64,000 nt of DNA from Clostridia bacterium (GCA_045603585.1 JAZUMK010000030.1:6607-70606), one strand, 5' to 3'. Counted from the stretch's first letter, positions 27,776 through 59,319 are shown. Notes: a model not told the origin generated them from the sequence alone. Made by a program: numbers and translations.

Positions 27776-29080
27776 TTAGATTAATATACCGAGTTGTTTT
27801 GCAGCACTTGTAAGTTCATCGCGGAAATTGGGGTGTGCTATAGAGATAAGCGCCTTTGTCCTCTGGGACAGAGTCTTTCCTCTGAGCTTGGCCACGCCGT
27901 ATTCTGTTACGATGTAATCCACGTCATTTTTGCTGGTTGTAACAAGCGCGCCCTTGGAAAGTGTAGGGGCTATTCTGCTGACAGTTCCGCCTTTGGCAGT
28001 GGAGGGGAAGGCGATGAAGCTCTTACCGCCCTTGGACTGCACTGCTCCGCGCACATAATCAGCCTGTCCACCTGAACCGGACATGTGCTTTGTTCCCATG
28101 GATTCGGCACATACCTGACCGTAGAAGTCCACCTCAAGGGCAGCATTTACGGAGATAAAGTTGGGGTGCTGTGCAATAACGTTGGGGTCGTTTACGTAAT
28201 CCACCGGAAGCATTAAAAATGCGGGATTGTCATTTATAAAGTCATATGTGCGCTTGGTGCCAAGAACCAGTGTAGCAACGCTTTTGCCCTTGTGTATGGG
28301 CTTGAGTTGGTTGGTAACCACGCCGCTTTCGATCATGTCCACCATGCTTTCGGTAAAAAGCTCGGTGTGGATGCCCATGTCGTGCTTATTCTGTCTCAGG
28401 GCAAGGCCAACAGCCTCGGGGACTGCACCGATACCAAGCTGCAGGGTTGCTCCGTTGGGGATTTCCTCAGCTATCATTCCGCCTATAACGTGGCTTATCT
28501 CATCAATGGCAGTGGCGGGCAGCGCAGGCAGAGGGGTGTCGCTTTCGCAAAGAGCTGCAACCTGAGAAATATGAATCATGGGGGAACCGAATGTTCTTGG
28601 CATATTCGGATTTACTTCCAAATAAATGCGCTTTGCCTTGTTGTACAGTACCTCACTGTATGAGCCTACCGCTCCGCTGGAAAACCATCCGTGGCTGTCC
28701 ATCGGGGAAACAGTGGCAAAGAAGGCATCGGTGTCCACATAATCCCTGTGAAGGGAAGGAATATCACGATAATGGCATGACATAATGTCCGCGCGGCCTT
28801 CATTGACAGCCTTGCGCAAACCGCCGCCGGAAAACCAGGATACAGGGGTAATACCCTGGGAGGCCTCAGGACTTAAAGCGGAAAGGGGCATAACATCCAG
28901 TACGGAATGCAGCTTTACATCCTTGATGTCGCCGGCTTTGGCTCTTTCACCTATCTCGTTTATAATGTTTGTGGGTATAGCTGCGGCAATATCCATAGTA
29001 CAGTTCCAACCGGATTGTACCTGATCGGCTATCTGCTTTGCCGAGCACAGCTTTGATTTGTATTGTTCGCTAAATTCCAT
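27776..29080 (-). CDS. Acetyl-CoA hydrolase/transferase-family CoA-transferase (4-hydroxybutyrate/butyryl-CoA:acetate type)
   Basis: It is collinear with the Cat2/AbfT family (LQLGIGAVPEAV, GSGGQADYVRGA, VTEYGVAKLRGK). I place the start at MEFSEQYKSKL because AAGGAGAG lies upstream. Confidence 0.85.
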   Translation of the reverse strand: MEFSEQYKSKLCSAKQIADQVQSGWNCTMDIAAAIPTNIINEIGERAKAGDIKDVKLHSVLDVMPLSALSPEASQGITPVSWFSGGGLRKAVNEGRADIMSCHYRDIPSLHRDYVDTDAFFATVSPMDSHGWFSSGAVGSYSEVLYNKAKRIYLEVNPNMPRTFGSPMIHISQVAALCESDTPLPALPATAIDEISHVIGGMIAEEIPNGATLQLGIGAVPEAVGLALRQNKHDMGIHTELFTESMVDMIESGVVTNQLKPIHKGKSVATLVLGTKRTYDFINDNPAFLMLPVDYVNDPNVIAQHPNFISVNAALEVDFYGQVCAESMGTKHMSGSGGQADYVRGAVQSKGGKSFIAFPSTAKGGTVSRIAPTLSKGALVTTSKNDVDYIVTEYGVAKLRGKTLSQRTKALISIAHPNFRDELTSAAKQLGILI

Positions 29081-29160
29081 AAGCATCTCTCCTTTGGGGC
29101 AGAGCAAGTACGATAAGTAATGTACTTGCAAATACCCTGAAACAGATGAAAGATTAATTA

Positions 29161-29592
29161 TTAACCGATAACAACCAGAACATCGCCGGAGTTAACAGTA
29201 GCGCCCTTAGCGGTATTTACGGCAGTAACGGTGCCGTTTACTCCTGCGAAGATTTCATTTTCCATCTTCATGGCTTCAAGAATGACAACAACACTGTCTG
29301 TGGAGACGGTATCGCCAACCTTTACCTTAACATCAAGTACATTGCCGGGCATGGGAGCGGTTATGCTGGTTGCATCAGCAGCAGGAGCAACGGGGACAAC
29401 GGGAGCTGCAACGGGAGCAGGAGCTGCAACGGGAGCAGGAGCTGCTGCGGGGGCTGCGCCGGCGGGGACCCTGGTGAGGGGAGTTCTGGAAAGGGAAGTT
29501 CTGGAAAGAGAACGGGCGGGGGAAACTGCACCGACTTCTTCTACTTCAACTTCATAAGAGTTATTGCCTACATTTACGATAAATTTACGCAT
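29161..29592 (-). CDS. gcdC: Biotin carboxyl carrier protein with an Ala/Pro linker (GcdC / decarboxylase gamma-like)
   Basis: It has the biotinylation motif EAMKMENEI and the linker AAPAAAPAPVAAPAPVAAPVVPVAPAA. Confidence 0.85.
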   Translation of the reverse strand: MRKFIVNVGNNSYEVEVEEVGAVSPARSLSRTSLSRTPLTRVPAGAAPAAAPAPVAAPAPVAAPVVPVAPAADATSITAPMPGNVLDVKVKVGDTVSTDSVVVILEAMKMENEIFAGVNGTVTAVNTAKGATVNSGDVLVVIG

Positions 29593-29634
29593 ATATACTT
29601 ACTATCCTCCCAAGTTTAATTGTGAAAATTGCTT

Positions 29635-30006
29635 TTATGCTTCGGTCATAATTGCCATTACGGCACCTATGACAGCTATCAGTTCATTCTGATCGGCAGA
29701 GCCACTGCTGATTTTTCTTATGGAACGAATGCGCATTCCTTCCATATTACCATCACAGTAGGAGGCGATTGATGCGGCGATAACGGCATCAAAGAGCTTC
29801 CTGTCAGTATGCATCAGGTCGTTTTCGGCAGGCTGAGAAACAGCGGCTGTCTGGGGCTGACCGCTTGCGGAAGCAGCGGTCTGCTGGGGCTGGGATTTAT
29901 CCTTGAGAATGGCGCTCATCAGCTTTGTTAAACAGATGAGGCAAATTAACCCAAAGAATACGGTTCCCATGCCTAAAAACAAAACAAACAAAGCATTAAC
30001 TTCCAA
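29635..30006 (-). CDS. OadG-family small membrane protein (decarboxylase anchor subunit, GcdD-like)
   Basis: It has a single N-terminal TM segment (ALFVLFLGMGTVFFGLICLICL) followed by a Gln/Ala-rich soluble tail. I propose a TTG start at 30006, 7 nt after an AAGGAGA. The longer ORF-track N-terminus has no RBS. Confidence 0.55.
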   Translation of the reverse strand: MEVNALFVLFLGMGTVFFGLICLICLTKLMSAILKDKSQPQQTAASASGQPQTAAVSQPAENDLMHTDRKLFDAVIAASIASYCDGNMEGMRIRSIRKISSGSADQNELIAVIGAVMAIMTEA

Positions 30007-30147
30007 AATAGTATCTCCTTTGTGTTTGATATTCCATTGGCAACGGGTAAAGCTTAGATCGACCGGCTGCAGTGTGTTCGCAATACACAAGCGTGTGCAG
30101 CAAAGCAGTATTTGCGAATGGCGGAGCAGCACATGCAGCAAATATGG

Positions 30148-30918
30148 TTAATCAGTAAAAGCCGGAGGCCGCTTTTCAAGAAAAGCGCTGATACCCTCGG
30201 TGTGATCGGCAGTGGTAAAGGCTTCTTTGAAGCATTCTGCCTCAGCCATGAGGGAAGAATGAAGCTGGTTTTCTATACCGATGTACATTGCCCTTTTGGC
30301 TAACGCAACGGCGCTTTTACTATTCTTGGCGATAGAAGCAGCGAGAGCCAGACAGTCATCCATAAGGTTTTCAGGTTCGCTCAGCTCATCTGCCAGACCC
30401 AGTTCCTCTGCATCGGCAGCGGCAATGATTTTTGCGGTGCTGATGAGCTGAAAGGCCTTTGAAAAGCCAACGACCCGGGAAAGACGCTGGGTGCCGCCAA
30501 AGCCGGGAATAAGTCCCAGAGTTACTTCGGGGAGACCGAGCTTTGCCTTGGAAGAAACAATGCGCATATCGCAGGCCAGAGCAAGCTCCAATCCGCCGCC
30601 CAATGCATAACCGTTTACTGCGGCTATAACAGGCTGGGGCAGCTCGGCAATGCCATTAAGCACTCTGTGACCCAGATGGGCAAAGTCCTTGGCTTCTTCT
30701 GCGGAGAACTTTGACATGGAAGCTATATCGCCGCCTGATGCAAAGGATTTACCTGTGCCGGTAAGAATTATTACCTTAACATCCTTCTGCTGGGAAGCTT
30801 CATGAAGGGCGTTTTCCAGGTCGAGCAGCAGGGATTTATCTATTGCGTTTAAGGTTTCGGGCCTGTTTAGTGTTATGATCGCTGTATTATTCAGCTTTTC
30901 AACTGTTACGCTTGACAT
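30148..30918 (-). CDS. Enoyl-CoA hydratase (crotonase family)
   Basis: Both catalytic Glu contexts are present (GGGLELALACD and LGLPEVTLGLIPG). Confidence 0.9.
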   Translation of the reverse strand: MSSVTVEKLNNTAIITLNRPETLNAIDKSLLLDLENALHEASQQKDVKVIILTGTGKSFASGGDIASMSKFSAEEAKDFAHLGHRVLNGIAELPQPVIAAVNGYALGGGLELALACDMRIVSSKAKLGLPEVTLGLIPGFGGTQRLSRVVGFSKAFQLISTAKIIAAADAEELGLADELSEPENLMDDCLALAASIAKNSKSAVALAKRAMYIGIENQLHSSLMAEAECFKEAFTTADHTEGISAFLEKRPPAFTD

Positions 30919-30927: not shown

Positions 30928-31770
30928 CTATTGATAGGTATAGAAGCCGCGGCCGGACTTTTTACCGTATCTGCCCGCTTCAACATACTGACGAAGCAGG
31001 GGGCAGGGACGATACTTGGGATCGCCATAGCCTTTGTACATGATCTCCAGTACAGAGAGGATGGTATCAAGGCCGATGAAGTCAGCAAGCTGAAGGGGAC
31101 CCATGGGGTGAGCCATACCCAGCTTCATGATTTCGTCAATGCCTTCGGGAGTGGCAACGCCTTCGTATACGCAGTAGATCGCCTCGTTAATCATAACCTG
31201 TAGAACCCTATTGGAAACAAAACCGGGAACATCACGTACTTCAATGGCAACCTTACCCATTTCCTCGCTGGTTTTGCAAACAAAATCGGTGGTTTCCTGA
31301 TCGGTTTCAAGGCCGCGGATAACTTCTACCAGGGTCTTTACAGGAACGGGATTCATAAAGTGCATGCCAATAACCTTCTCGGGACGCTTGGTAACGGCTG
31401 CAATGCTGGTGATAGGGAGGGAGGAGGTATTGGTGGCAAAGATGGTCTCAGGCTTGCAGATCTCATCCAGCTGCTTGAAAACGCTGCTCTTGATCTCCAT
31501 GTTTTCGATGATGGCTTCAATTACCAGATCGCAGTCAGCAGCATCCTGCAGGGAGGAAGAGGTGGTCAGCTTGCTGAGAACTTCTTCTTTTCTTTCTGCG
31601 GGGATCTTGCCCTTGTCCACATTCCTCTGCAGATTGCCGGCAATATAGGCCATACCCTTTTCAAGGGCTGCGGCTGCAGTGTCGGAGAGGATGGTATCAT
31701 AGCCTGCCTGTGCACAGCACTGTGCAATACCGCTGCCCATCTGGCCAGCGCCTAATACAAAAACTTTCAT
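30928..31770 (-). CDS. hbd: 3-hydroxybutyryl-CoA dehydrogenase
   Basis: It has MKVFVLGAGQMGSGIAQ (Rossmann fold) and the typical 280-aa Hbd layout. Confidence 0.9.
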   Translation of the reverse strand: MKVFVLGAGQMGSGIAQCCAQAGYDTILSDTAAAALEKGMAYIAGNLQRNVDKGKIPAERKEEVLSKLTTSSSLQDAADCDLVIEAIIENMEIKSSVFKQLDEICKPETIFATNTSSLPITSIAAVTKRPEKVIGMHFMNPVPVKTLVEVIRGLETDQETTDFVCKTSEEMGKVAIEVRDVPGFVSNRVLQVMINEAIYCVYEGVATPEGIDEIMKLGMAHPMGPLQLADFIGLDTILSVLEIMYKGYGDPKYRPCPLLRQYVEAGRYGKKSGRGFYTYQ

Positions 31771-31802: not shown

Positions 31803-32996
31803 TTAATCGTCTATAGTTACATAAACAGCGTCGCCCTGAGCCATTGCGGAGCATATTGCGCATATGCCGCTCTTCTTGCCGGAACGCCTGAGCTCGTAAA
31901 TAAGGGTCATAAGGATTCGTGCGCCGGTTGCGCCGATGGGATGTCCTACGGCTACTGCACCGCCGTTTACATTTACCCTTTCATTGCGGGTTTCGTCGTC
32001 CATGCCGATGACCTTGCAGCTTACCAAGGGAACGGCGGCAAAGGCTTCGTTTATCTCATACAGATCCACGTCCTTGTAGCTCAAATTGTTCTTCTTGAGC
32101 AGCTTGGAGGTTGCAAGCCCGGGGACTGTGGAAATCAGATGGGACTGCTGGGCAGCCTGTGAATAATCGCGTATGGTGGCCAGTATGGGAGCGCCAAGCT
32201 CTTCGGCCTTTTCTCTTGACATAATTACTATTGCAGAAGCGCCGTCATTGGTGCCGGGAGCATTGCCGGCGGTAACAGTGCCGTCAGGAATGAATACCGG
32301 CTTAAGGGCGGCCAGACCTTCAAGCGTGGAATCGGGTCTGGGAGATTCGTCCTTATCCATTACCATGGTGCCTTTGCGGGTTTTAATGGTAACAGGGAAG
32401 CGCTCATCATCGAATTTATGGGCGGCTTCACCTGCGGCCCACAGTTTCTGGGAACGGAGAGCCCATTCATCCTGCATTTCTCTGGTTACGCCGTATTCTA
32501 CGGCAACTTTGCCGCCTATAACGGCCATGTGAACTTTATTTTCGGGGCAGGTAAGGCCGTCGTAAAGCATGGAGTCTTCCAGAGCAACGGAACCCATACG
32601 GGTGCCCCAACGGGTTCCAAGGGAAAGATAGGGGAGATTGCTCATGCTTTCCATGCCGCCTGCAACGATGATATCGGCATCGCCTGCTTTTATCATCTGT
32701 GCGCCCAAAACAACGGCTTTGAGAGCAGAGCCGCAAGCCTTGTTGATTGTCAGCGCGGGTACGTCGTGAGGAATACCGCCCAAAATAGATGCCTGTCGTC
32801 CGGGGACCTGACCTGCGCCATCGGGCACTACGATACCCATGATGGTCTCATCCACCATGCTGCCTTCAATGCCTGCACGGGCAAGTGCCTCACGTATAGC
32901 CATGCCGCCAAGTTCTGCTACGCTGATGTCCTTGAGCATACCGCCGAACTTGCCGAATGGGGTTCGTGCTGCGCTTACAACTACAACTTCCTTCAT
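31803..32996 (-). CDS. Acetyl-CoA C-acetyltransferase (biosynthetic-type thiolase)
   Basis: It has the active-site Cys in NKACGSALKAV, the C-terminal NVNGGAVAVGHPIGATGARI, and CSAMAQG. Confidence 0.92.
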   Translation of the reverse strand: MKEVVVVSAARTPFGKFGGMLKDISVAELGGMAIREALARAGIEGSMVDETIMGIVVPDGAGQVPGRQASILGGIPHDVPALTINKACGSALKAVVLGAQMIKAGDADIIVAGGMESMSNLPYLSLGTRWGTRMGSVALEDSMLYDGLTCPENKVHMAVIGGKVAVEYGVTREMQDEWALRSQKLWAAGEAAHKFDDERFPVTIKTRKGTMVMDKDESPRPDSTLEGLAALKPVFIPDGTVTAGNAPGTNDGASAIVIMSREKAEELGAPILATIRDYSQAAQQSHLISTVPGLATSKLLKKNNLSYKDVDLYEINEAFAAVPLVSCKVIGMDDETRNERVNVNGGAVAVGHPIGATGARILMTLIYELRRSGKKSGICAICSAMAQGDAVYVTIDD

Positions 32997-33020: not shown

Positions 33021-33233
33021 TTACCCCCAGATATTGAAGCCATCGTCATCCATGTTGATTTCCTTCAGCAGGCAACGACTTCCGCCGGGGCAATCCGTTT
33101 TCTTATTGCAGTCTACGGGCTGTTCAAATGCATCTATCTGACAGCCCCCGCCATTATTGGCCGAAACCAGGATGGTGAGGGTGACCTCACCACCGATTTC
33201 GCACCTTTTTGTCATTTTGTATTCAAATTCCAT
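33021..33233 (-). CDS. Hypothetical 70-aa Cys-rich protein
   Basis: The ORF fills the gap between the two thiolase genes (7 nt and 24 nt spacers) and uses codons like its neighbours. It has five Cys, no recognisable family and a weak RBS. Confidence 0.45.
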   Translation of the reverse strand: MEFEYKMTKRCEIGGEVTLTILVSANNGGGCQIDAFEQPVDCNKKTDCPGGSRCLLKEINMDDDGFNIWG

Positions 33234-33240: not shown

Positions 33241-34419
33241 TTAGCCTAAGTCCATACCGCAGATGGTTATACCGGCTACGCAGCAGTAGGGACGGCCGCC
33301 CATGTTATGGGTCATGCCCAGACGTACGTTTTCTCTCTGACGCTTGCCGGCCTTGCCGTGGAACTGGAGCCACATTTCGTAGATCATCCTCAGGCCGCTG
33401 GCGCCGATGGGGTGACCGAAAGACTTGAGGCCACCGTCAATATTGATGGGCAGCTTGCCGTCTCTGTCATACTTGCCGTCCATGAAGTCCTTCCAGCCCT
33501 GACCGCGTTCACTGAAACCGAGGTCTTCGCTGATGAGCAGCTCGGTGATGGTGAAGCAGTCGTGCACTTCGGCAAGGCTGATCTGCTCCTTGGGGTTGGT
33601 TACACCGGCTTCCTTATAGGCGGCCTGTGCGGCATTGATGGTTTCGGAAACGTAGGTAAAGTCGTACTTGGAGCTCTTCTTGTTAAAGCCGTTGCCGGAG
33701 GCGATCTGCAGAGCCTTTACATACATGGGATCCTTGCGGTAGTTCTTTGCAAGGCTGGCTCTGGTAACGATGGCGCAGGAGCAGCCGTCGGATACGCCGG
33801 AGCAGTCCATTACGGTGAGGGGATATGCTATGTAAGGCATATTCAGTATCTTTTCCATGGGAACTTCCTTACGGTACATTGCCTTGGGGGTAAGTGCGCC
33901 GTTGGAATGGTTCTTGAAGGAAATATGAGCAAGTGCCTCGTGAAGCTGCTCGCCGCTGATGCCGTACTTATGGGCATAGGCAGAAGCGCACAGGGAGAAG
34001 GCAGCGGGAGTGGACATGAAGGGTTCGGTCATGTCGGACTCAACGTGGGGTACAACCAATCCGCTGTAACCGCCGTCCTTAAGCTTTTCAGCGCCGATGG
34101 CCATGGCAACATCGCAGGCGCCGGAAGCTACTGCGTAGCATGCGTTGCGGAAGGCATCGGTGCCGGAGCAGCACTTGTTTTCCAGGCGGGTTACGGGCTT
34201 GTATTCGCTCATCAGTCTGGTGGATAGAGCATCGCCTGCAAGGCCGGATTCAAAAGTGCCGAACCAGAATGCGTCAATATCCTTAAGCTCGATACCGGCA
34301 TCCTTCAGGGCCTCCTGAGATGCTTCTACGATAAGATCTTCAAGGCTGGCATCAAAGCGCTCTCCAAAATAGCTGCAGCCCATGCCGATAACGGCACATT
34401 GATCGCGTATACTTGCCAT
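33241..34419 (-). CDS. SCPx/archaeal-type thiolase-like protein
   Basis: It has the active-site region LENKCCSGTDAF and the C-terminal DGGLKSFGHPIGASG. ATG 34419 (MASIRDQ) lies 8 nt after an AAGGAGG and just downstream of the upstream gene's stop codon. Confidence 0.85.
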   Translation of the reverse strand: MASIRDQCAVIGMGCSYFGERFDASLEDLIVEASQEALKDAGIELKDIDAFWFGTFESGLAGDALSTRLMSEYKPVTRLENKCCSGTDAFRNACYAVASGACDVAMAIGAEKLKDGGYSGLVVPHVESDMTEPFMSTPAAFSLCASAYAHKYGISGEQLHEALAHISFKNHSNGALTPKAMYRKEVPMEKILNMPYIAYPLTVMDCSGVSDGCSCAIVTRASLAKNYRKDPMYVKALQIASGNGFNKKSSKYDFTYVSETINAAQAAYKEAGVTNPKEQISLAEVHDCFTITELLISEDLGFSERGQGWKDFMDGKYDRDGKLPINIDGGLKSFGHPIGASGLRMIYEMWLQFHGKAGKRQRENVRLGMTHNMGGRPYCCVAGITICGMDLG

Positions 34420-34420
34420 A

Positions 34421-35839
34421 TTAGTTGCCTCCTTTTTCACGCTTCAAAACGGATTTCCAGTAATATGTGCGAATTCCGTCTACATTCTGCAGACAGCGGA
34501 AGGACATATCGACTTCCTTGCCGATGGCGATTTCCTCGGGCTCACAGTCCACGATGTTGGTGAAGATGCGGCCGCCGCCTTCGTAGTCAATAACGGCGAT
34601 CATGCTTGGGGGATCTTCGGAAACGGTGATCTTATCTACGGTATAGGTGGCGATGGTACCCTTCCTGCCAAGGAAGCGGTAGGGCTCATTCTGGTCTACG
34701 CTGTAGCACTCAAGGCAGGTACGTGCACCGGGATATTGAACGGCTCCGCAAACCTTGCAGCGAGTGCCGTAAAGGGCAAAATTCTTGCCGGGAACACGGT
34801 AGTATTCAGGCAGAGACATACGCCTGAGGGGAGGGCGGCGCTGGGGCTCAGTGGTGAGAAGTCTGCGCCAGCGGAGGTACTTTTCATAGGGCATGGAGGT
34901 ACGCTTATGCTCGATGCTGTACTTTACTCTCTTGGGAATAGAGGCAACTGCATCGGTGGTTTCAAATACCATAGCATCCACGCCTTCGCCGTAGCCCAGG
35001 AAAAGGATCTTGTCGCCGGGGTTGCTGTTTTCCAGTGCGGAGCACAGCATCAGAGGAGCTGCGGCACAGCCGGTGTTGCCAACCATATCGTACATATTTT
35101 CCTGAACCTGTTCAGGAGTGAAGCCCAGAGCCTTGGCCATGTCGCCCTGATAACGGGCGGTATGGGCATATATAACGGCTTTGGTGATATCCTTGGTTTC
35201 AAGGCCGCACTTTTCAAGAACCTTCTGAGCGGCTTCCTTCATCAGGGGCATGTACTGCTGAGTGATGGCAAAGCGCTCTTCCCAGCTCTTTACGAAGGGC
35301 TCGCCTTCGGATCTCCACAGATCAAAGAAGTCTCTGGAAATGGAAACGCTGCCCTTCAGCTCTGCAATAAGATCGCTGCTGCCGATTACGAATGCAGCTG
35401 CGCCATCGCCGAAAAGAAGTTCATTTGCGCCGTCGGCAAATGCGGTTCTGCAGTCAGCAGCGGCAACCAGAACGTCGTCGCCCTTTTCTGCATCGGCAAA
35501 GGCAGACAGCATAGCAGTGGAACCGCAGCGAAGAGAGCTGGCAAAGTCAGCGGTCTTAACATCGGTACCCATGTCCAGTGCAGCAGCCACAACTGTGGAG
35601 CACTGTTTTTCTTTGTAGGGAAGGGTGGTGGAGGCCAAGTAGATGCCGTTTACAGAGGGGGATTCCTCCAGTCCGCAGCAGTCAACCGCAGCGGCAACAG
35701 CCATAGTGATGCTGTCTTCGTCATAGCTGGCAACTGCCTTTTCACCGCGCTCTCCCTTTTTGGAATAAGCGTCGCAGATGCGTTTGCGTTCCAATCTGTT
35801 GAAAGGAATGTAAACACCGCAGGATTTAATACCTGTCAC
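34421..35839 (-). CDS. HMG-CoA-synthase-like condensing enzyme fused to a C-terminal DUF35 (zinc-ribbon + OB-fold) domain
   Basis: The N-terminal ~340 aa carry HMGCS-like Glu (SYDEDSITMA), Cys (SLRCGSTAM) and His (YAHTARY) contexts. The C-terminal ~130 aa carry CKVCGAVQYPGARTCLEC followed by an OB-like segment. It uses a GTG start 9 nt after an AAGGAGG. Confidence 0.8.
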   Translation of the reverse strand: MTGIKSCGVYIPFNRLERKRICDAYSKKGERGEKAVASYDEDSITMAVAAAVDCCGLEESPSVNGIYLASTTLPYKEKQCSTVVAAALDMGTDVKTADFASSLRCGSTAMLSAFADAEKGDDVLVAAADCRTAFADGANELLFGDGAAAFVIGSSDLIAELKGSVSISRDFFDLWRSEGEPFVKSWEERFAITQQYMPLMKEAAQKVLEKCGLETKDITKAVIYAHTARYQGDMAKALGFTPEQVQENMYDMVGNTGCAAAPLMLCSALENSNPGDKILFLGYGEGVDAMVFETTDAVASIPKRVKYSIEHKRTSMPYEKYLRWRRLLTTEPQRRPPLRRMSLPEYYRVPGKNFALYGTRCKVCGAVQYPGARTCLECYSVDQNEPYRFLGRKGTIATYTVDKITVSEDPPSMIAVIDYEGGGRIFTNIVDCEPEEIAIGKEVDMSFRCLQNVDGIRTYYWKSVLKREKGGN

Positions 35840-35918: not shown

Positions 35919-36020
35919 AGTGTAGCATTGGCGGATTTTAAAGTCAAGAAAAATCATTGACAAATATAAAAATACGAGATATAATTATAATTTTAGTATT
36001 CACTTAAGGTTTCATTGAAA
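35919..36020. promoter_or_regulatory. Bidirectional promoter/operator module, copy 1 (operon side and tetR side)
   Basis: Core sequence: AAAGTCAAGAAAAATCATTGACAA (35940-35963).
- Minus strand: TTGACT, 17-nt spacer, TACACT (35924-35919), pointing to the 12-gene operon.
- Plus strand: TTGACA, 17-nt spacer, TATAAT (35980-35985), pointing to tetR.
- Palindrome TTTCATTGAAA at 36010-36020. Confidence 0.55.
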
Positions 36021-36172: not shown

Positions 36173-36775
36173 ATGGAACACACCCCAATTAAAAAACGTA
36201 AACAGCAAGCAATTGAAACAAAGGAGCGTATCTATAATGCCACCATCAGCCTGATCAGGGAGCGTGGATTCAGCAATGTCCTGATGGAGGATATTACAAA
36301 GGCGGCGGGCGTATCTGCAGGATTGTTTTATAACTATTTTGCCAATAAGGCAGATGTTATTACCGAGGCATTCTGCTATCGCAGCTGTAAGTATTACGAT
36401 GCTATGGAGCAGGAGCTGCAGGATATAGAGGGCATAGCAAAGCTTCGAATGATAATAAAGCATATGGCCACTCTGCGTCAGGAAATATACGATAAAGAAG
36501 AGCTGAGATATCACCATGTAAACATTCTTGAGACACATAAGCGCCTTGAGGATGTTAGGGAAAACAGCAGCAAACTTCATAAAATGATAATGGAATCTCT
36601 TACGGAGGCGAAGGCCGCCGGTGAGATCCCTGCAGCAATGGACATAGATAATATGTGCAATGTTGTAATGCTGGTGCTCAGAGGGGCCACATGGGAGTAT
36701 CTGGCTGCTACAGGAGAATATCCATTTGAAGAGCGGACCTGGGACATAATTTCAGGCTATATTAAGGGAATATAA
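36173..36775 (+). CDS. TetR/AcrR-family transcriptional regulator
   Basis: The 200-aa protein has an N-terminal HTH (RIYNATISLIRERGFSNVLMEDITKAAGVSAGLFYNYF). Confidence 0.9.
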   Translation: MEHTPIKKRKQQAIETKERIYNATISLIRERGFSNVLMEDITKAAGVSAGLFYNYFANKADVITEAFCYRSCKYYDAMEQELQDIEGIAKLRMIIKHMATLRQEIYDKEELRYHHVNILETHKRLEDVRENSSKLHKMIMESLTEAKAAGEIPAAMDIDNMCNVVMLVLRGATWEYLAATGEYPFEERTWDIISGYIKGI

Positions 36776-36789
36776 TTGAAATATAACAT

Positions 36790-36816
36790 AAAAGCGGCAT
36801 AAAGCCGCTTTTTGCA
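36790..36816. terminator. Bidirectional hairpin terminator after tetR
   Basis: AAAAGCGGCataaAGCCGCTTTTTG. Confidence 0.7.
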
Positions 36817-36829
36817 TGTTCGCTGATTA

Positions 36830-36930
36830 TTTCAATGAAACCTTAATTGAAATAAAACCTTTAATTATACTCTATAATTTTATGCTTGTCAATAATGATT
36901 CTTGACTTTGCCTATACCCAATGTTATACT
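36830..36930. promoter_or_regulatory. Bidirectional promoter/operator module, copy 2 (inverted relative to copy 1)
   Basis: Core sequence: TTGTCAATAATGATTCTTGACTTT (36886-36909).
- Plus strand: TTGACT (36902-36907), 17-nt spacer, TATACT (36925-36930), pointing to the gcdA-like gene.
- Minus strand: TTGACA, 17-nt spacer, TATAAT, pointing back toward tetR.
- Palindrome TTTCAATGAAA at 36830-36840. Confidence 0.55.
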
Positions 36931-36995
36931 TCTACTGTGTAAAGCTGTTTCTATATAACACATATAAAATATTACTGTGAAACAGGGAGGTTTCC

Positions 36996-38762
36996 ATGGA
37001 TACAGAATATGTAATGCACCGTTATTTTCAGGGGATGCCCCAGATAGGTACTCCGCTTGCCTCTCGGGATACTGCAAATGAGCAGCAGCTCAGGCAGATA
37101 GAAGAGGAACTGGATGAAGCTTTGAGAGTTTTGCTGGAGGCAGGCGTAAGTGACGATTCTCTCAATAAGAGAGGTCAGCTCACTGCTCTTCAGAGGCTTG
37201 GTGTCCTTATTGACGAGGGTACCTGGCGTCCCATTAACAGCCTGTTCAATCCCGAATTCAATGAAGATGACGGATGCAGCGTTCTTACCGGTATGGCAAA
37301 GGTGGAAGGTAAGTGGACTGTTATCATCGCCTTCGATAATAAGAAAACCGCAGGCGCATGGGTTCCCGGTCAGGGCCGTAAGATCGTCCGTGCTACCGAG
37401 ATCGCCGAATCCCTGCGTGTTCCCCTTATATATGTACTTAACTGCAGCGGTATGAACCTGCTTCTGCAGGAAAAGCTGTTCAGCGGCCGTCTGTGCAGCG
37501 GCACTCCCTTTTATCGTCATTCCAGACTGCAGCAGGAAGGCATGCCTGTTCTTATCGGCATCTATCAGACCAATCCTGCCGGCGGCGGATACCATGCAAT
37601 CAGTCCTTCTCTGCTTATCGCCAAGGATGATGCCAACTTTGCAGTAGGCGGCTCCGGTATACTGGGCGGTATGAGCTCCAAGGGCTTCTATACTGCTGAA
37701 AGCGCACGTACCCTTATAAATTCTGTGACCAGCTCAGAAACTCCTCCCGCACCCGGCCAGATGAATGTTCATTACTCTCAGACCGGATTTGTAAGAGAAG
37801 TTTACGGCGAAGAAGAAGAGGTGCTGCTGGCGCTGCGTAAGTATGTTGCCGCAATGCCGGCTTATGATCCTGAGTTCTTCAGAGTAGCTCCTCCCATGGA
37901 GCCCCTGTATCCCGGTGAGGATCTGTACACATTGGTTCCTTTCAACCAGCGCAGGCCCATCAATATGCCTGAAGTGGTTGCCCGTCTTGTGGATAACAGC
38001 GAATTTGACGAGTATAAACCGGATTACGGTCCCGAAATTTTCTGCGGTCTCTGCCGCTTGAGCGGTTATCTTGTAGGTATCGTTGGCAACCGTCAGGGTC
38101 TGCTGATGAATTACCCCGAATATCGCCAGAACAGCGTAGGCCTGGGCGGCAAGCTGTATCGTCAGGGTCTCATCAAGATGAATGAGTTCACCACAATGTG
38201 CGCTCGTGACCGCATACCTCTCATCTGGATACAGGATACCACCGGTATCGATGTTGGCGATGATGCTGAGGTTGCAGAAGTTCTGGCTCTGGGTCAGGCT
38301 CTGGTATACTCTGTGCAGTCTGCTGGTGTTCCTCAGATGGAGCTGACCATACGTAAGGCCAATGGCGCCGCGCACTTCCTTATGGGCGGTCCTCAGGGCA
38401 ACGACAGCTGCGTATTCAGCTTCTGCACTGCAGCCAGCGAATACAATCCCATCGTAGCGGAAACCGCTGCAGCTGCTGTATACTCCAGGCGTCTGGTAAG
38501 AGATGATGCTGCCGGCAAGGATATTCAGCCCACCATCGATCTTATGAATGCGCTTATCCAGCGTTATAAGGATACTTCCGAGAATCCCCGCTTTATCGTA
38601 AAGACCGGTCTTGCTGAGGAATGCCTGCCTATGCCTTGCATCAGAGATTACTTTGTTACATTTGCTGAGGCTGCATATCAGAATCCTGCAAGCACATGCC
38701 CCCCTCATCTGATGCTGACTCCCCGCGTGATTAAGGATTATAACGACCTTAAGAACAAGTAA
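36996..38762 (+). CDS. gcdA: Carboxyltransferase of the glutaconyl-CoA decarboxylase alpha-subunit type
   Basis: The 588-aa protein is collinear by eye with my recollection of Acidaminococcus GcdA. Shared segments include YFQGMPQIGTPL, NKRGQLTALQR, DNKKTAGAWVPGQ, GIYQTNPAGGGYH, LLMNYPEY, GGKLYRQGLIKMNEF, WIQDTTGIDVG and GGPQGND. Confidence 0.85.
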   Translation: MDTEYVMHRYFQGMPQIGTPLASRDTANEQQLRQIEEELDEALRVLLEAGVSDDSLNKRGQLTALQRLGVLIDEGTWRPINSLFNPEFNEDDGCSVLTGMAKVEGKWTVIIAFDNKKTAGAWVPGQGRKIVRATEIAESLRVPLIYVLNCSGMNLLLQEKLFSGRLCSGTPFYRHSRLQQEGMPVLIGIYQTNPAGGGYHAISPSLLIAKDDANFAVGGSGILGGMSSKGFYTAESARTLINSVTSSETPPAPGQMNVHYSQTGFVREVYGEEEEVLLALRKYVAAMPAYDPEFFRVAPPMEPLYPGEDLYTLVPFNQRRPINMPEVVARLVDNSEFDEYKPDYGPEIFCGLCRLSGYLVGIVGNRQGLLMNYPEYRQNSVGLGGKLYRQGLIKMNEFTTMCARDRIPLIWIQDTTGIDVGDDAEVAEVLALGQALVYSVQSAGVPQMELTIRKANGAAHFLMGGPQGNDSCVFSFCTAASEYNPIVAETAAAAVYSRRLVRDDAAGKDIQPTIDLMNALIQRYKDTSENPRFIVKTGLAEECLPMPCIRDYFVTFAEAAYQNPASTCPPHLMLTPRVIKDYNDLKNK

Positions 38763-38788
38763 TATAAAGTAATACGAGGGATAAGAAA

Positions 38789-39955
38789 ATGGCAGAACTT
38801 CCACTTAAAGGCATAAAAGTAGTTGAACTTACAACTTATGTAGCTGCTCCCATTTGCGGAAGAATGCTCTGCGATATGGGCGCCGAGGTAATAAAGATTG
38901 AGCCGCCCACAGGTGATGTGTGGAGACATCTGAGACGCAATGTGGCCACTGCTCCTTCCGGAGAGGTTGTAAACTCTATGTTCCAGATAACCAACGCCGG
39001 CAAAAAGAGCGTTGTTTTGAACCTCAGAGACCCTGCGGATATGGAAAACCTCCATAAACTCCTCGAAGATGCTGATGTATTCCTTACCAACAACCGTCTG
39101 TCCTCCCTGAAAAAGATGGGGCTGGATCACGATACTATCTGCAAGAAGTATCCTCACCTGATTTATGCTCTGCTTACCGGTTATGGTGAGGAAGGTCCCG
39201 ATGCAATGAAGCCCGGCTTTGACCTGGTGGCATTCTTCAGCATGTCCGGATATTTGCTGGATATGTCCTGTAAGGAAAATAAGTATCCTGCTTCCGCACC
39301 TACCGGCGCAGGCGATGTTACTTCCGGTATGGCACTGCTCAGCGGTATACTTGCCGCACTGTATAAGAAAAAGGAAACCGGCATGGGCGACTACGTTTCG
39401 GTATCCCTTTACAATACCGGCCTCTGGGTATACAGCACCCCCATTATGCGTGCCGGCGATCCTTACAATACCGAACGCCGTCTGAGCCGCAACGACATGT
39501 GTCCTCTGGCAACCATGTATCGCTGCGGAGATGATGAGTGGATACAGGTATCCATACTTAATGAGGTTGAGCAGGCTCCCGTGTTCTTCAGACTGCTGGG
39601 CGTACCCGAGCTTGCTGAGGACCCCAGATTTGCTACCGATAAGGCTCGCCTTAAGTACACTAAGGAACTGTTTGAGATCGTTGAACCCATATTCCTGACC
39701 AAGCCCAGCTATGAATGGCTGGAAATGCTTCAGAAGGAAGCTATCGTAAGCAGCCGCCTGGCACACTTCTCGGATGTTGCGTCCAGCGAGCAGGCGTGGG
39801 CAAACGGATATCTGGAAAACTTTACCTTCCCCAATGGGGAAACGGCGGTAATACCCTGTTCTCCCGTACGCCTTGAATCCATAGGCGTAGCTCCCTCCAA
39901 GAATGCGCCCGCACTGGGTGAAAACACTGAAGAGGTCCTCTCCAATCTGAAATAG
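38789..39955 (+). CDS. Family III (CaiB/BaiF) CoA-transferase
   Basis: The N-terminus is LKGIKVVELTTYVAAPICGRMLCDMGAEVIKIEPP, with a downstream Asp-containing PGFDLV region typical of the family. Confidence 0.88.
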   Translation: MAELPLKGIKVVELTTYVAAPICGRMLCDMGAEVIKIEPPTGDVWRHLRRNVATAPSGEVVNSMFQITNAGKKSVVLNLRDPADMENLHKLLEDADVFLTNNRLSSLKKMGLDHDTICKKYPHLIYALLTGYGEEGPDAMKPGFDLVAFFSMSGYLLDMSCKENKYPASAPTGAGDVTSGMALLSGILAALYKKKETGMGDYVSVSLYNTGLWVYSTPIMRAGDPYNTERRLSRNDMCPLATMYRCGDDEWIQVSILNEVEQAPVFFRLLGVPELAEDPRFATDKARLKYTKELFEIVEPIFLTKPSYEWLEMLQKEAIVSSRLAHFSDVASSEQAWANGYLENFTFPNGETAVIPCSPVRLESIGVAPSKNAPALGENTEEVLSNLK

Positions 39956-40095: not shown

Positions 40096-41049
40096 TTAGG
40101 GAAGGGGATGGTGGCATGCTACGAAGTGGTTGGGCTCCAGCTCGGTGAGAGCAGGGTCGGAAGCGAAGCACTCTTCGGTAGCATAGGGGCAACGCTTTGC
40201 AAAACGGCAGGCGTTGGGCAGATTGATGGGGGAAGTGATCTCGCCCTTGAGCAGGATACGGTCCATCTTCTTGTCGATATCCGGTTCGGGGATAGCGGAC
40301 AACAGCGCCTGAGTATAGGGATGACGGGGATGCTCAAAGAGAGCGTCGGCAGCAGCTTTTTCTACCATCTGGCCCAGATACATGACCGCGATATCATCAG
40401 CAAAGTAATATACAACGGAAAGGTCATGGGTGATGAAAATGTAAGTAAGGCCAAGCTGCTCCTGCAGGTTCTTCAGCAGGTTAAGAATCTGCGCCTGAAT
40501 GGAAACGTCCAGGGCGGATACGGGCTCGTCGCAGATGATGAACTTGGGGTTCATGGCCAGTGCGCGGGCGATGCCGATACGCTGTCTTCTGCCGCCGTCC
40601 AGCTCGTGAGGATAGGAATTGAACAGACGTTCTGCAAGACCTACAGTGGACATAAGCTCAAGAACACGGTTGTCGATCTCTTCCTTGTCAGTCAGGATCT
40701 TATTGAGCACAATGGGCTCTCTGATCAGCTGGTTTACGGTGTAGCGAGGATCCAGGGAGGAGAAGGGATCCTGGAAGATGATCTGCATGTCCTTGCGCAG
40801 GGCGCGCATTTCATTTGCGGAACACTTGGTGATATCCTTGCCTTCAAACAGAACCTCGCCGGAGGTGGGCTCGATAAGGCGGAGAATGGCACGGCCGGTG
40901 GTAGACTTACCGCAGCCGGATTCGCCTACGATGCCAAGGGTTCTGCCGCGTTCGATAGAGAAGCTTACGCCGTCAACTGCATGGAGCATACCACGCTTGG
41001 TTTTAAAGTATTTCTTTAGGTTTTTGACTTCGAGAAGGGTATCGCTCAT
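40096..41049 (-). CDS. ABC transporter ATP-binding protein (OppF/DppF-type)
   Basis: It has Walker A GESGCGKST, signature ELDGGRRQR, Walker B FIICDEPVSALD and the C-terminal Opp-type extension. Confidence 0.9.
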   Translation of the reverse strand: MSDTLLEVKNLKKYFKTKRGMLHAVDGVSFSIERGRTLGIVGESGCGKSTTGRAILRLIEPTSGEVLFEGKDITKCSANEMRALRKDMQIIFQDPFSSLDPRYTVNQLIREPIVLNKILTDKEEIDNRVLELMSTVGLAERLFNSYPHELDGGRRQRIGIARALAMNPKFIICDEPVSALDVSIQAQILNLLKNLQEQLGLTYIFITHDLSVVYYFADDIAVMYLGQMVEKAAADALFEHPRHPYTQALLSAIPEPDIDKKMDRILLKGEITSPINLPNACRFAKRCPYATEECFASDPALTELEPNHFVACHHPLP

Positions 41050-41050
41050 G

Positions 41051-42094: not shown

Positions 42095-42108
42095 CTTGTG
42101 TTCCTCCG

Positions 42109-43020: not shown

Positions 43021-43022
43021 CT

Positions 43023-43952: not shown

Positions 43953-44079
43953 ATCGTTTATTTTCTCCTCCTGGGTGTGATTTAAAAATGATCTTACAAA
44001 AAAAGTTCCAAATTAAAAATATGGATTCCGCTCCGCCAGGGAGCGGAATCCATTGCGTTAGTTAAAGAAGGTTATTTCT

Positions 44080-45675: not shown

Positions 45676-45790
45676 TTTGCGTTTCCTCCTGATTTTTTTG
45701 TTTTTTTGTAAGGTCATTGATAAGCAACTGGGGTTCAACAATTTCTTTTCATTGAATAACTTACTCGATTTGTACAACTCACTCGATGTT

Positions 45791-46128: not shown

Positions 46129-47001
46129 ATGGAACTGAATTCTATTAAGCATGTATGCGTGGCGGGCTGCGGCACTATGGGCAGACAGATCGCCATGAAC
46201 GCTGCCATTTACGGATACGATGTAAAGATTTACGATCTCAGCGAGGCTTCCAGAGAAAATTGCAGGAAGTGGAGCGAGGAGTATCTTCAGGGCCGTATCG
46301 ACAAGGGCCGCATGACCGTAGAACAGGTCGAGGATATCAAGAGCCGTTTCAATATACTTGATTCTTTGGAAGCTGCTGCTTCTGATGCGGATCTTGTAAT
46401 TGAGACCATTGTTGAGATTGAAGATGTTAAGAGGAGTTTCCTTAAGCAGGTAAGCGCAATTGTACGCGAGGATACTATCCTTGCCAGCAATTCCAGCTAT
46501 ATGCCTACTTCTCTTTTTGCCAATGATGTTGTAAACCCCGGCAGAATGGCAAACCTGCATTATTCCAATCCTGCCATCGTTATGAAAATGGCTGAAATCG
46601 CCTCCGGTGAACACACTGCGAAAGAAACCGTGGATACTCTTATGGAGTTTGCACGTTCAGTGGGCAAGGTGCCTGTTTGGATCCGTAAGGAGATAGATGG
46701 CTTTATCGGCAATAGAATTAAGCGCTGCGTAGACAGAGAAGCAAGATGGCTGGTTGAAAATGGCTATTGCACTCCTCAGGATGTTGATACTGTGCTTGAA
46801 ACCGGCTATGGCTATCCCAAGGGCCCCTTCAGGCTGTTGGATATGACCGGCGTTGATCTGGCTTTTGTTGTGCTTCGTGAGAAGTATCAGAAGACCGGTA
46901 TCAAGGATCCCGGCTACGATATGCTTGAAGAGATGTATAATGATGGCCGCTGGGGCGTAAAGACCGGCAAGGGCTTCTATGATTATACGGACAAGAAGTA
47001 A
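46129..47001 (+). CDS. 3-hydroxyacyl-CoA dehydrogenase family protein (second copy in the locus)
   Basis: It has the Rossmann motif VCVAGCGTMGRQIA. At 290 aa it has an Hbd-like architecture, but it is clearly divergent from the hbd at 30928-31770. Confidence 0.88.
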   Translation: MELNSIKHVCVAGCGTMGRQIAMNAAIYGYDVKIYDLSEASRENCRKWSEEYLQGRIDKGRMTVEQVEDIKSRFNILDSLEAAASDADLVIETIVEIEDVKRSFLKQVSAIVREDTILASNSSYMPTSLFANDVVNPGRMANLHYSNPAIVMKMAEIASGEHTAKETVDTLMEFARSVGKVPVWIRKEIDGFIGNRIKRCVDREARWLVENGYCTPQDVDTVLETGYGYPKGPFRLLDMTGVDLAFVVLREKYQKTGIKDPGYDMLEEMYNDGRWGVKTGKGFYDYTDKK

Positions 47002-59317: not shown

Positions 59318-59319
59318 AC

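Follow-up and report, generated by a model that had tools for sequence, protein, structure and literature searches.

The gene pair at positions 33241 to 35839 of the window (the whole 64,000-nucleotide stretch of DNA that we analyzed) very probably encodes a heteromeric β-ketoacyl-CoA thiolase, made up of an SCP2-type catalytic subunit and a non-catalytic HMGS-like::DUF35 partner. The role that we consider most likely is that of a β-oxidation or butyrate-pathway ketothiolase. The arrangement itself has already been described, and the pair belongs to the bacterial ACAT/HMGS-DUF35 class (PMC12960953). A small cysteine-rich partner of the pair is a new observation made here and was previously undescribed.

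Gene arrangement and domain composition

The features of the pair were as follows.
34421..35839, minus strand: gene for a 472-aa HMGS-like::DUF35 fusion protein (GTG start at 35839, TAA stop at 34423-34421)
34850..35839, minus strand: HMG-CoA-synthase/PhlA-like module of the fusion protein (residues 1 to ~330; alignment to 6esq_I and 5m3k_A)
34445..34789, minus strand: DUF35 module of the fusion protein (residues ~351-465; zinc ribbon, then OB fold)
33241..34419, minus strand: gene for a 392-aa SCP2/archaeal-type thiolase (ATG at 34419)
35919..35963, minus strand: promoter-like hexamers upstream of the fusion gene (consensus match only)

A sequence-only reading of this DNA had claimed a two-gene system, and both minus-strand ORFs were found with exactly the boundaries that it gave. 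It had also placed the thiolase gene directly after the fusion gene, and the thiolase ATG indeed lies one base past the fusion stop codon. The AGGAGG sequence preceding this ATG is located inside the 3' end of the fusion gene, and the sequence AAAGGAGG is located 8 nt upstream of the fusion-gene GTG. The two genes appear to be translationally coupled. The promoter-like hexamers of the fusion gene overlap a perfect, divergent TTGACA-17-TATAAT sequence on the plus strand (35957-35985), which precedes tetR. When the region from 35839 to 24668 was scanned for hairpins, the minus strand yielded only three weak ones, all of them inside genes (at 35442, 26752, and 25745).

The N-terminal part of the fusion protein was KASIII/HMGCS-like (ACP_syn_III_C match, 5.5e-12). 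The HMGS-like module matched archaeal HMGCS at 8.5e-31 as a single sequence and at 7e-52 with a profile, and its family-profile scores were 1.2e-55 for 9skh_A, 5.9e-55 for 5m3k_A, and 7.2e-52 for 6esq_I. An AF2 model of the fusion protein (pLDDT 86, pTM 0.89) had its best Foldseek matches in PhlA-like proteins and archaeal HMGCS (9skh, 6esq_I/J, 5mg5, and 9vbo), which confirmed the HMGCS fold match.

The proposed attachment of DUF35 to the C terminus of the HMGCS-like protein was borne out by a C-terminal OB_ChsH2_C match (7e-12; 45.5 bits, with a cutoff of 27.1 bits) and by the four-Cys motif CKVCGAVQYPGARTCLEC at residues 361 to 378. This region consists of a rubredoxin-like zinc ribbon with four Cys and, after it, an OB fold, as in DUF35 (PF12172 + PF01796), and the zf-ChsH2 match was subthreshold (16.7 bits versus a cutoff of 23.2 bits). 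The zinc-ribbon residues C361, C364, C375, and C378 (CxxC-x10-CxxC) were invariant in 85/85 relatives. The DUF35 module matched 6esq_E at 2.4e-13 as a single sequence and at 4.6e-22 with a profile, and the AF2 model had β strands at residues 357 to 465. A conserved linker that contains invariant residues (residues ~318 to 350) joins the HMGS-like part to DUF35.

The thiolase was recognized by Thiolase_C_1 (2.8e-39), PRK06157 (591 bits; cutoff, 403 bits), and PDB chain 6esq_A (9e-56). Homologs of the thiolase, HMGCS, and DUF35 modules of the archaeal complex are all present in the two genes, as had been claimed.

Catalytic residues of the fusion protein and the thiolase

The HMGCS tetrad of M. 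thermolithotrophicus, E82/C114/H238/N270, corresponds to T71/L103/Y224/N255 in the fusion protein, in which only N255 (the equivalent of N270) is kept. The placement of T71, L103, and Y224 was obtained with three sequence-based methods (pairwise phmmer, MAFFT alignment, and a family profile search). The replacements were conserved among the top homologs (T in 111/116, L in 115/116, and Y in 112/116), and the E-C-H combination was found in 0 of about 200 family members examined and in 0/85 diverse genome-derived relatives. This conservation of T, L, and Y, together with the lack of E-C-H in all 85 relatives, fits a selected non-catalytic role. The sequence-only reading had noted that the catalytic Glu, Cys, and His contexts appeared to be kept, had treated the fusion protein as a condensing enzyme, and had set the loss of these residues beforehand as refuting its claim. 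The alignment revealed this very loss, with Thr, Leu, and Tyr at the three positions here and across the family, and the condensing-enzyme claim does not stand.

With Glu, Cys, and His replaced, HMG-CoA synthesis cannot pull the thiolase reaction forward. Two-step channeling, in which the thiolase would form acetoacetyl-CoA and the fused HMGCS module would join it with acetyl-CoA to give HMG-CoA or an analog and so draw the condensation forward, is thus extremely unlikely, even though the three modules have homologs in 6esq chains A, I, and E and even though N255 and several HMGCS framework motifs, including the DEDS and WR motifs, were retained. Because of these retained elements, the HMGS-like module may have a residual ligand-binding role or another catalytic role. 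Neither the archaeal tetrad mutants nor a tetrad-less fusion protein from P. fluorescens formed HMG-CoA (PMC12960953), and the fusion protein of the window scored below the cutoff of every NCBIfam HMGCS model (for PRK04262, 202 bits versus a cutoff of 244 bits). Cys105 and His226, which are located two residues downstream, were considered as shifted catalytic residues and rejected because they were conserved in only 19/116 and 64/116 homologs, respectively.

The thiolase keeps Cys83 (C83-C-S), H286-D-C288-F, and G-H336-P, all of which were invariant in 69/69 partner thiolases. This conservation bears on whether the pair might be a PhlABC/MucABC-type Friedel-Crafts C-acyltransferase, which would acetylate a small-molecule acceptor with acetyl-CoA or a phenolic compound as the donor. 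The HMGS-like module scored marginally better against the PhlA-type chains 9skh_A and 5m3k_A than against 6esq_I, and the tetrad is absent in PhlA as well. However, the HDxF histidine is absent from PhlC and MucB but invariant here, and the thiolase is far nearer to archaeal ACAT (9e-56) than to PhlC (5e-26). In addition, the window annotation contained no PKS or NRPS machinery near the pair; the neighbors were acyl-CoA catabolic and butyrate genes instead. We therefore regard a C-acyltransferase as very unlikely.

We give hardly any credence to an Ltp2/ChsH2- or Sal-type retro-aldolase, which would cleave the side chain of a 3-hydroxyacyl-CoA rather than a 3-oxoacyl-CoA. DUF35 partners of thiolase-fold aldolases exist (PMC12329534), and 6ok1 was matched at 2.3e-22 and 4.8e-4, but the similarity to Ltp2 was much weaker than that to true thiolases. 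The 3-hydroxyacyl-CoA dehydrogenase neighbors lead one to expect a 3-oxo substrate, and the Cys83 nucleophile is kept by the thiolase. Ltp2/Sal-type aldolases are not known to need a Cys nucleophile.

Operon context, gene family, and the cysteine-rich ORF

As the sequence-only reading had suggested, the pair heads a fermentation-type operon, in which thl, hbd, crt, gcdD/C, CoA-transferase, and bcd-etfBA genes follow on the same strand. The neighboring features were as follows.
33021..33233, minus strand: conserved 70-aa cysteine-rich ORF after the thiolase gene (gene call by NCBI, JGI, and ENA)
31803..32996, minus strand: classical thiolase II, acetyl-CoA C-acetyltransferase (Thiolase_N, 2.4e-91; PRK08235, 519 bits)
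30928..31770, minus strand: 3-hydroxybutyryl-CoA dehydrogenase (3HCDH_N and 3HCDH; PRK05808, 433 bits, above the cutoff)
30148..30918, minus strand: short-chain enoyl-CoA hydratase, crotonase (PRK05809, 287 bits)
29635-30141, minus strand: OadG/GcdD-like membrane anchor (OAD_gamma, 3.5e-15)
29161-29592, minus strand: GcdC-like biotin carrier protein (Biotin_lipoyl, 6.6e-19)
27776-29131, minus strand: family-I CoA-transferase, butyryl-CoA:acetate type
26613-27755, minus strand: acyl-CoA dehydrogenase
25792-26592, minus strand: EtfB (match above NCBIfam AcrA/AcrB cutoffs)
24668-25774, minus strand: EtfA (match above NCBIfam AcrA/AcrB cutoffs)
36173-36775, plus strand: TetR regulator of a divergent unit (36173..39955)
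36996-38762, plus strand: GcdA-like carboxyltransferase of the divergent unit (relatives named glutaconyl-CoA decarboxylase alpha)
38789-39955, plus strand: family-III CoA-transferase of the divergent unit (closest to Rv3272, SUGCT, and Frc)
46129..47001, plus strand: second 3-hydroxyacyl-CoA dehydrogenase (74% identity to the dehydrogenase of a relative, L085)

In a scan of the 64-kb window that covered ~48 larger ORFs, chiefly those of ~140 aa or more, neither HMG-CoA reductase nor a GHMP kinase turned up. Among these ORFs, the claim that mevalonate genes were lacking nearby held, and isoprenoids are probably not the fate of the product, as the reading had suggested.

The recurrent PF02515 neighbor was also considered as an α-methylacyl-CoA racemase, an identity that would have pointed to 2-methyl-branched substrates. 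This candidate was rejected for the window, given that the window protein scored ~135 to 142 bits with Rv3272, SUGCT, and Frc versus 73 bits with AMACR. The second 3-hydroxyacyl-CoA dehydrogenase is the ortholog of the dehydrogenase in the compact operon of L085, which consists of the pair, the small ORF, thlII, a family-III CoA-transferase gene, and hbd. Among close relatives, 3-hydroxyacyl-CoA dehydrogenases were the commonest immediate neighbors, and the association with a family-III CoA-transferase and such a dehydrogenase was conserved. A GTDB species scan returned no relative beyond 53% identity. The assignment to a Clostridia-type organism is based on metagenome relatives that carry the label Clostridia bacterium and on a T-box leader.

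The fusion family comprised 542 clusters at 50% identity (E ≤ 1e-30) from many phyla. The thiolase gene directly followed the fusion gene in 61/66 loci with room for it, and the paired loci spanned Firmicutes, Chloroflexi, Deltaproteobacteria, Acidobacteria, and others. In three Syntrophomonadaceae-type operons, one labeled by source name (that of the small ORF of L089) and two by synteny, the pair was the sole thiolase of a complete β-oxidation set, with the gene order acd, CoA-transferase AB, hbd, fusion, thiolase, small ORF, crt, and dienoyl-CoA-reductase-like. Two family members (P0242 and P0244) carried extra fused SDR and SCP2 domains and so resembled the MFE-2/SCPx β-oxidation architecture.

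These data were difficult to reconcile with the proposal, put forward in the only biochemical study of the class to date, that its representative, and with it the class, is an intermediate in evolution and belongs to no defined pathway (PMC12960953). The classical thiolase in the window could cover acetoacetyl-CoA turnover, as this proposal would allow. Against it stand the size and phylum range of the family, the pairing of the two genes, and the operons in which the pair is the only thiolase. Dozens of residues were invariant in the family, among them every catalytic residue of the thiolase and the residues that ligate zinc, and the thiolases of relatives were 66 to 86% identical where their partner proteins were 58 to 75% identical. 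An evolutionary intermediate is accordingly very improbable in our judgment.

The 70-aa ORF contained five invariant cysteines (C11, C31, C42, C48, and C54) in 20 sequences that were 22 to 43% identical, and it matched no Pfam or PHROG family. A structure prediction was unusable (pLDDT 50, pTM 0.33). In every locus inspected where the small ORF occurs, it followed the fusion-thiolase pair. It was missing downstream of the thiolase gene in 18 other loci checked, including those of Dethiobacter, Bacillaceae, and Dehalococcoidia, which indicates an accessory of a subset of the family (Firmicutes) and not of the whole family. The product of the ORF may be an accessory subunit.

Proposed function and relation to known systems

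In the heteromeric ketothiolase that we favor, the SCP2/archaeal-type thiolase would perform the chemistry, with Cys83 as the acyl-accepting nucleophile; as in other thiolases of the SCP2 type, acid/base and oxyanion functions would fall to the HDCF loop (H286 and C288) and H336. Analogy with PhlA/MucA and the archaeal complex suggests that the HMGS-like fold is kept as a structural module that forms part of a shared CoA-binding chamber, and the fused DUF35 zinc-ribbon/OB module would clamp the two thiolase-fold subunits together. We infer this physical complex from homology and gene coupling. The complex would cleave 3-oxoacyl-CoA with CoA or, reversibly, condense acyl-CoA with acetyl-CoA; it would form no HMG-CoA and would channel no acetoacetyl-CoA into a second condensation. 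The pair is presumably co-transcribed with thl, hbd, crt, gcdC/D, the CoA-transferase gene, and bcd-etfBA under the divergent TetR regulator, and such co-transcription would point to a role in short-chain acyl-CoA or butyrate metabolism.

The classical thiolase encoded directly downstream should make the pair dispensable for acetoacetyl-CoA turnover here. The adjoining acetoacetyl-CoA thiolase, together with the clade-conserved partners of the pair (a CoA-transferase resembling SUGCT and a separate 3-hydroxyacyl-CoA dehydrogenase), suggests that the preferred substrate is probably not plain acetoacetyl-CoA but another 3-oxoacyl-CoA, i.e., a longer, dicarboxylic, or branched one.

Fusions that join DUF35 to domains of the thiolase superfamily were reported in 2010 (PMC2954200), and 1,030 bacterial loci in which all three domains occur together have been mined (PMC12960953). 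The fused HMGS-DUF35 protein and ACAT of P. fluorescens, which were purified in 2026, carried out acetoacetyl-CoA thiolysis but made no HMG-CoA and no acetoacetyl-CoA from acetyl-CoA (Liao et al., Nat Commun, PMC12960953). The features of this class were found in the window, namely, a tetrad-less HMGS::DUF35 fusion, an adjacent ACAT with Cys/HDxF/GHx, and no PKS/NRPS genes. The P. fluorescens pair is alike in these respects and in its two-gene form, a likeness of described features and not of directly compared sequences. Unlike that pair, the window pair comes from an anaerobic Clostridia-type Firmicute and is located in a butyrate/glutaconyl-CoA/β-oxidation operon with a second thiolase and a Cys-rich mini-ORF. 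The authors assigned no pathway to the P. fluorescens pair, whereas the context in the window points to β-oxidation. Such genomic contexts suggest a likely physiological setting for the ACAT/HMGS-DUF35 class of bacteria.

Each of the three modules of the window pair has its homolog in the archaeal complex, and the two thiolases have identical catalytic residues. In contrast to the archaeal complex, the window pair has lost the HMGCS Glu, Cys, and His, its DUF35 is fused and not separate, and it has no mevalonate context; without the three residues, neither a second condensation nor the thermodynamic pull from it is possible. The multicomponent C-acyltransferases PhlABC, MucABC, and CsATase (5m3k, 9vbo, and 9skh) have the same tripartite set, with an inactive HMGS-like protein and a catalytic thiolase-fold subunit. 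The PhlC/MucB systems act on small-molecule acceptors and belong to polyketide/NRPS clusters, and the window pair differs from them in its invariant HDCF and its fused DUF35. Among other DUF35/SCP2-thiolase pairs, the benzoylsuccinyl-CoA thiolase BbsAB (7pxp), which acts on a dicarboxylic acyl-CoA in a modified β-oxidation, resembles the window pair in combining DUF35 with an SCP2-type HDxF thiolase (BbsB match, 1.5e-38; BbsA family match, 1.7e-7). However, BbsA is a stand-alone DUF35 protein without an HMGS-like module. No DUF35, Zn-ribbon, or HMGCS-like thiolase partner was found in searches of Syntrophomonas proteomics papers.

NCBI and JGI name many proteins of the family HMG-CoA synthase, and judging from their residues, none of those examined should be able to make HMG-CoA. 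The distinction affects how fatty-acid, dicarboxylate, and butyrate metabolism is reconstructed for anaerobes of the gut and of digesters.

More tentatively, a subset of anaerobic Firmicutes, including the organism studied here and Syntrophomonadaceae, might possess a four-module ketothiolase composed of the thiolase, the HMGS-like scaffold, the DUF35 clamp, and the ~70-aa Cys protein as a metal-binding or redox component, used for anaerobic β-oxidation or chain elongation of specific substrates. We consider this possible but doubtful. If it were true, "orphan evolutionary intermediate" would be a wrong description of the class. The substrates of such an enzyme may be a 3-oxo-dicarboxyl-CoA (3-oxopimelyl- or 3-oxoadipyl-CoA) or 3,5-dioxohexanoyl-CoA. 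The 3-oxo-dicarboxyl-CoA candidates would feed glutaryl/glutaconyl-CoA decarboxylation.

The clade-conserved set of a CoA-transferase, a dehydrogenase, and two thiolases also led us to consider a CoA-dependent phloroglucinol route. No phloroglucinol reductase or cyclohydrolase was encoded nearby, and this route was retained only as a low-probability candidate. The characterized clostridial phloroglucinol route runs on free acids (PMC10470551). In the older version of the route, 3-hydroxy-5-oxohexanoyl-CoA is converted to triacetyl-CoA, which then undergoes two thiolase cleavages.

The gene pair and its operon

The sequence-only reading described an HMG-CoA synthase (HMGS)-like protein fused to DUF35 and followed by an SCPx-type thiolase. 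We found two minus-strand ORFs exactly where they had been placed, and their modules were matched by Pfam and PDB entries. The features of the locus were as follows.

35839 to 34421, minus strand: fusion gene, 472 aa (GTG at 35839, TAA at 34423-34421; AAAGGAGG 8 nt 5' of the GTG)
34419 to 33241, minus strand: thiolase gene, 392 aa (ATG at 34419, 1 base past the fusion stop codon)
33233 to 33021, minus strand: 70-aa cysteine-rich ORF, directly 3' of the thiolase gene
31803 to 32996, minus strand: classical thiolase II gene (thlII)
Then, minus strand, in order: 3-hydroxybutyryl-CoA dehydrogenase (hbd); crotonase (crt); OadG/GcdD-like protein; biotin carrier; butyryl-CoA:acetate-type CoA-transferase; acyl-CoA dehydrogenase (acd); EtfB; EtfA
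Divergent unit: TetR regulator; GcdA-like carboxyltransferase; family-III CoA-transferase

The AGGAGG sequence of the thiolase gene was located within the final codons of the fusion gene, which, together with the 1-base spacing, suggested translational coupling. In the fusion protein, Pfam identified ACP_syn_III_C (residues 208-288, 5.5e-12) and OB_ChsH2_C (residues 388-448, 7e-12), and a weak zf-ChsH2 match at residues 355-380 was below threshold (16.7 bits versus a cut-off of 23.2). The CKVCGAVQYPGARTCLEC motif spanned residues 361-378, and all four zinc-ribbon Cys of the DUF35 module were invariant in 85/85 relatives. The thiolase matched Thiolase_C_1 (2.8e-39) and Thiolase_N and passed the NCBIfam PRK06157 cut-off (591 versus 403 bits).

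Among solved structures, the fusion protein matched the HMG-CoA synthase and DUF35 chains of the Methanothermococcus thermolithotrophicus complex (6esq_I, 8.5e-31; 6esq_E, 2.4e-13), as well as the PhlA-type chains 9skh_A (2e-31) and 5m3k_A (5e-28). The thiolase matched 4yzo (1e-56), the archaeal thiolase 6esq_A (9e-56), BbsB of 7pxp (1.5e-38), and PhlC (5e-26). The AlphaFold2 model of the fusion protein was confident (pLDDT 86, pTM 0.89), and its top Foldseek matches were the chains already found by sequence, with a TM score of about 0.8 on the target. The Pfam, NCBIfam, and structure matches thus indicated that all three of the archaeal complex's modules were present, encoded by two genes.

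The divergent intergenic region was 333 bp long and contained predicted promoter-like hexamers. From the start of the fusion gene through etfA, a scan of the minus strand gave only three weak hairpins (35442, 26752, and 25745); all were within genes, and none was convincing. The family-III CoA-transferase was closest to Rv3272, SUGCT, and formyl-CoA transferase, and its identification as AMACR was rejected because AMACR was more distant than these three. Relatives of the GcdA-like carboxyltransferase carried the name glutaconyl-CoA decarboxylase alpha. The glutaconyl-CoA decarboxylase homologues were divided between the divergent units, with alpha at 36996-38762 (plus strand) and the carrier and gamma/delta-like anchor at 29161-30141 (minus strand); no gene for the OAD_beta/GcdB membrane subunit turned up in those window ORFs that were scanned. 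Mevalonate-pathway families were not found among the approximately 48 larger ORFs scanned across the 64-kb window, in the main those of about 140 aa or more.

Catalytic residues of the synthase module and the thiolase

In 6esq_I numbering, the HMGCS catalytic tetrad consists of E82, C114, H238, and N270, the positions that were changed in the 'mut4' variant (PMC12960953). The corresponding fusion residues were T71, L103, Y224, and N255. Pairwise phmmer, a MAFFT alignment with 116 homologues, a second alignment of 85 proteins from 80 genome loci, and a family-profile search all agreed on this placement. The closest 116 homologues had Thr (111/116), Leu (115/116), and Tyr (112/116) at the first three positions, and Glu-Cys-His was found in none of 85 more distant relatives, which were 38-53% identical and came from many phyla. 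The NCBIfam HMGCS models all scored under their cut-offs on the fusion protein (202 versus 244, 146 versus 353, and 49 versus 360 bits). The sequence-only reading had proposed an active condensing HMGCS module with its catalytic Glu, Cys, and His retained, and had stated that the claim would fail if an alignment showed their loss. Such a loss is what the alignments showed, so the proposal of an active module was abandoned. The impression of retained residues probably came from C105 and H226, which lie two residues C-terminal to the canonical Cys and His positions and were kept in 19/116 and 64/116 homologues, respectively.

The thiolase kept Cys83 (equivalent to Cys85 of 6esq_A, in C-C-S), the HDxF loop as H286-D-C-F, and G-H336-P. 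SCP2-type thiolases use the Cys and His of HDCF in place of the acid/base that classical thiolases have in CxG. The Cys83, HDCF, and GHP motifs were invariant in 69/69 thiolases sitting directly behind a fusion gene. Judged by these motifs, the thiolase is intact.

Fusions of DUF35 to thiolase-superfamily domains were reported in 2010, when PhlA was proposed to be an inactive thiolase-fold partner (PMC2954200). More recently, Liao et al. (2026) assembled, by mining, 1,030 bacterial loci in which HMGS, ACAT, and DUF35 domains occur together and then purified a Pseudomonas fluorescens ACAT with its fused HMGS-DUF35, in which the tetrad was lost and the Cys, HDxF, and GHx motifs were kept (PMC12960953). 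That complex cleaved acetoacetyl-CoA but did not form HMG-CoA or acetoacetyl-CoA, and its activity was lost when the HDxF His was mutated (PMC12960953). The window pair had every sequence-level feature that marks this class. It differed from the PhlABC/MucABC acyltransferases, whose defining loss of the HDxF His was not present in the window thiolase. Given the 2010 and 2026 reports, the fusion could not be regarded as a novelty, and the locus is a further case of a known, recently characterized bacterial class.

Family spread and gene context in relatives

A word-indexed search returned more than 3,700 relatives of the fusion protein. The best 120 were all about 470 aa with identical architecture, and their source names were 'OB-fold domain-containing protein' or 'HMG-CoA synthase (family protein)'. 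An exhaustive search of 50%-identity representatives yielded 542 clusters at E<=1e-30; of the best 150, almost every one aligned over its full length. Relatives were encoded at no fewer than 413 loci among GTDB species representatives; the hosts included Syntrophomonas, Syntrophothermus, Dethiobacter, Peptococcaceae, Desulfotruncus, Oscillospiraceae, aerobic Bacillaceae, many Dehalococcoidia, Deltaproteobacteria, Acidobacteria, and Armatimonadota. An SCP2-type thiolase gene was directly 3' of the fusion gene in 61/66 loci with enough downstream DNA.

A T-box leader in the window and relatives that carry the label Clostridia bacterium placed the organism in the Firmicutes. The locus of a 94%-identical relative was the same as that of the window. 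In a 75%-identical relative (L085, 10001-16183), TetR was divergent from a compact operon of the pair, the small ORF, thlII, a family-III CoA-transferase, and hbd. The thiolase, thlII, and CoA-transferase were 86%, 85%, and 61% identical to those of the window, and the dehydrogenase was 74% identical to a second window hbd (46129-47001, plus strand). Since these orthologues were found in the window, the core set is complete there but dispersed, interrupted by gcdA and an Opp-type ABC operon. The window CoA-transferase (38789-39955, plus strand) and second hbd were 3-10 kb from the pair, with gcdA and the Opp-type ABC operon between. The transporter operon itself occupied 40096-45777 on the minus strand.

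Two relatives with 58-59% identity (L081 and L087) had the pair with a family-III CoA-transferase, 3HCDH and/or SDR dehydrogenases, thiolase II, and a glyoxalase-fold protein. In three Syntrophomonadaceae-type loci (L088 to L090; named as such in the source only for the L089 small ORF and assigned by synteny for L088 and L090), the order was acd, CoA-transferase A/B, hbd, fusion, thiolase, small ORF, crt, and a dienoyl-CoA-reductase-like gene, and the pair was the sole thiolase of a complete beta-oxidation set. In a set of 26 diverse loci, each with 5 kb or more of flanking DNA on either side, neighbors included acd (12/26), hbd (7/26), crt (7/26), and a family-III CoA-transferase (5/26). Two family members had extra C-terminal domains, namely SDR (adh_short) plus SCP2 in P0242 (911 aa) and two SCP2 domains in P0244 (722 aa). 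These extensions resembled MFE-2/SCPx beta-oxidation architecture and link the proposed scaffold protein to such modules.

The idea that the ACAT/HMGS-DUF35 class is a functionless intermediate was disfavored because the family is broad, its catalytic and zinc residues are invariant, and some operons have no thiolase other than the pair.

The 70-aa ORF is a new detail of the locus. Its homologues formed 21 clusters in a 5.8-billion-protein set, and their five Cys were invariant at 22-43% identity. In every inspected locus with a homologue, it was placed behind the fusion-thiolase pair and nowhere else. The hosts were the window clade, Syntrophomonadaceae, Syntrophothermus, and Desulfotruncus; the small ORF was not found in many other fusion-family loci. 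It had no Pfam family, and its AlphaFold2 model was unreliable (pLDDT 50). Within this subset of the Firmicutes, its product may act as an accessory subunit.

Proposed function and other features of the window

We propose that the thiolase would be the sole catalyst of the locus. By analogy with 6esq and the acyltransferases 5m3k and 9vbo, the HMGS-like::DUF35 protein would be a structural partner that builds the heteromeric assembly and an interfacial CoA chamber. The complex could then carry out reversible thiolysis of 3-oxoacyl-CoA in beta-oxidation or butyrate-type metabolism. A substrate other than acetoacetyl-CoA (dicarboxylic, longer, or branched) is plausible given the adjoining acetoacetyl-CoA thiolase, the dicarboxylate-type CoA-transferase and separate dehydrogenase as conserved partners, and the interleaved glutaconyl-CoA decarboxylase subunits. 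The locus is of value for its gene context, which points to a beta-oxidation role, and for the small Cys-rich partner.

Elsewhere in the window, several large ORFs (689-1669, 6468-7712, 8962-10575, 47742-49190, and 51021-53477) had no Pfam match, and a full-length DUF4914 protein was encoded at 53893-55788 (plus strand, 1018 bits). Two tandem TPP riboswitch aptamers (60059-60166 and 60220-60327, minus strand) were 5' of a small ORF (59525-59872), beyond which was a thiamine salvage/biosynthesis cluster (56074-59473) with hydroxyethylthiazole kinase, TMP synthase, HMP-P kinase, and thiamine pyrophosphokinase. A T-box leader (5078-5340, minus strand, 104 bits) was 5' of a 481-aa Beta_elim_lyase-family gene (3523-4968, minus strand), which may be an uncommon kind of T-box-controlled gene.
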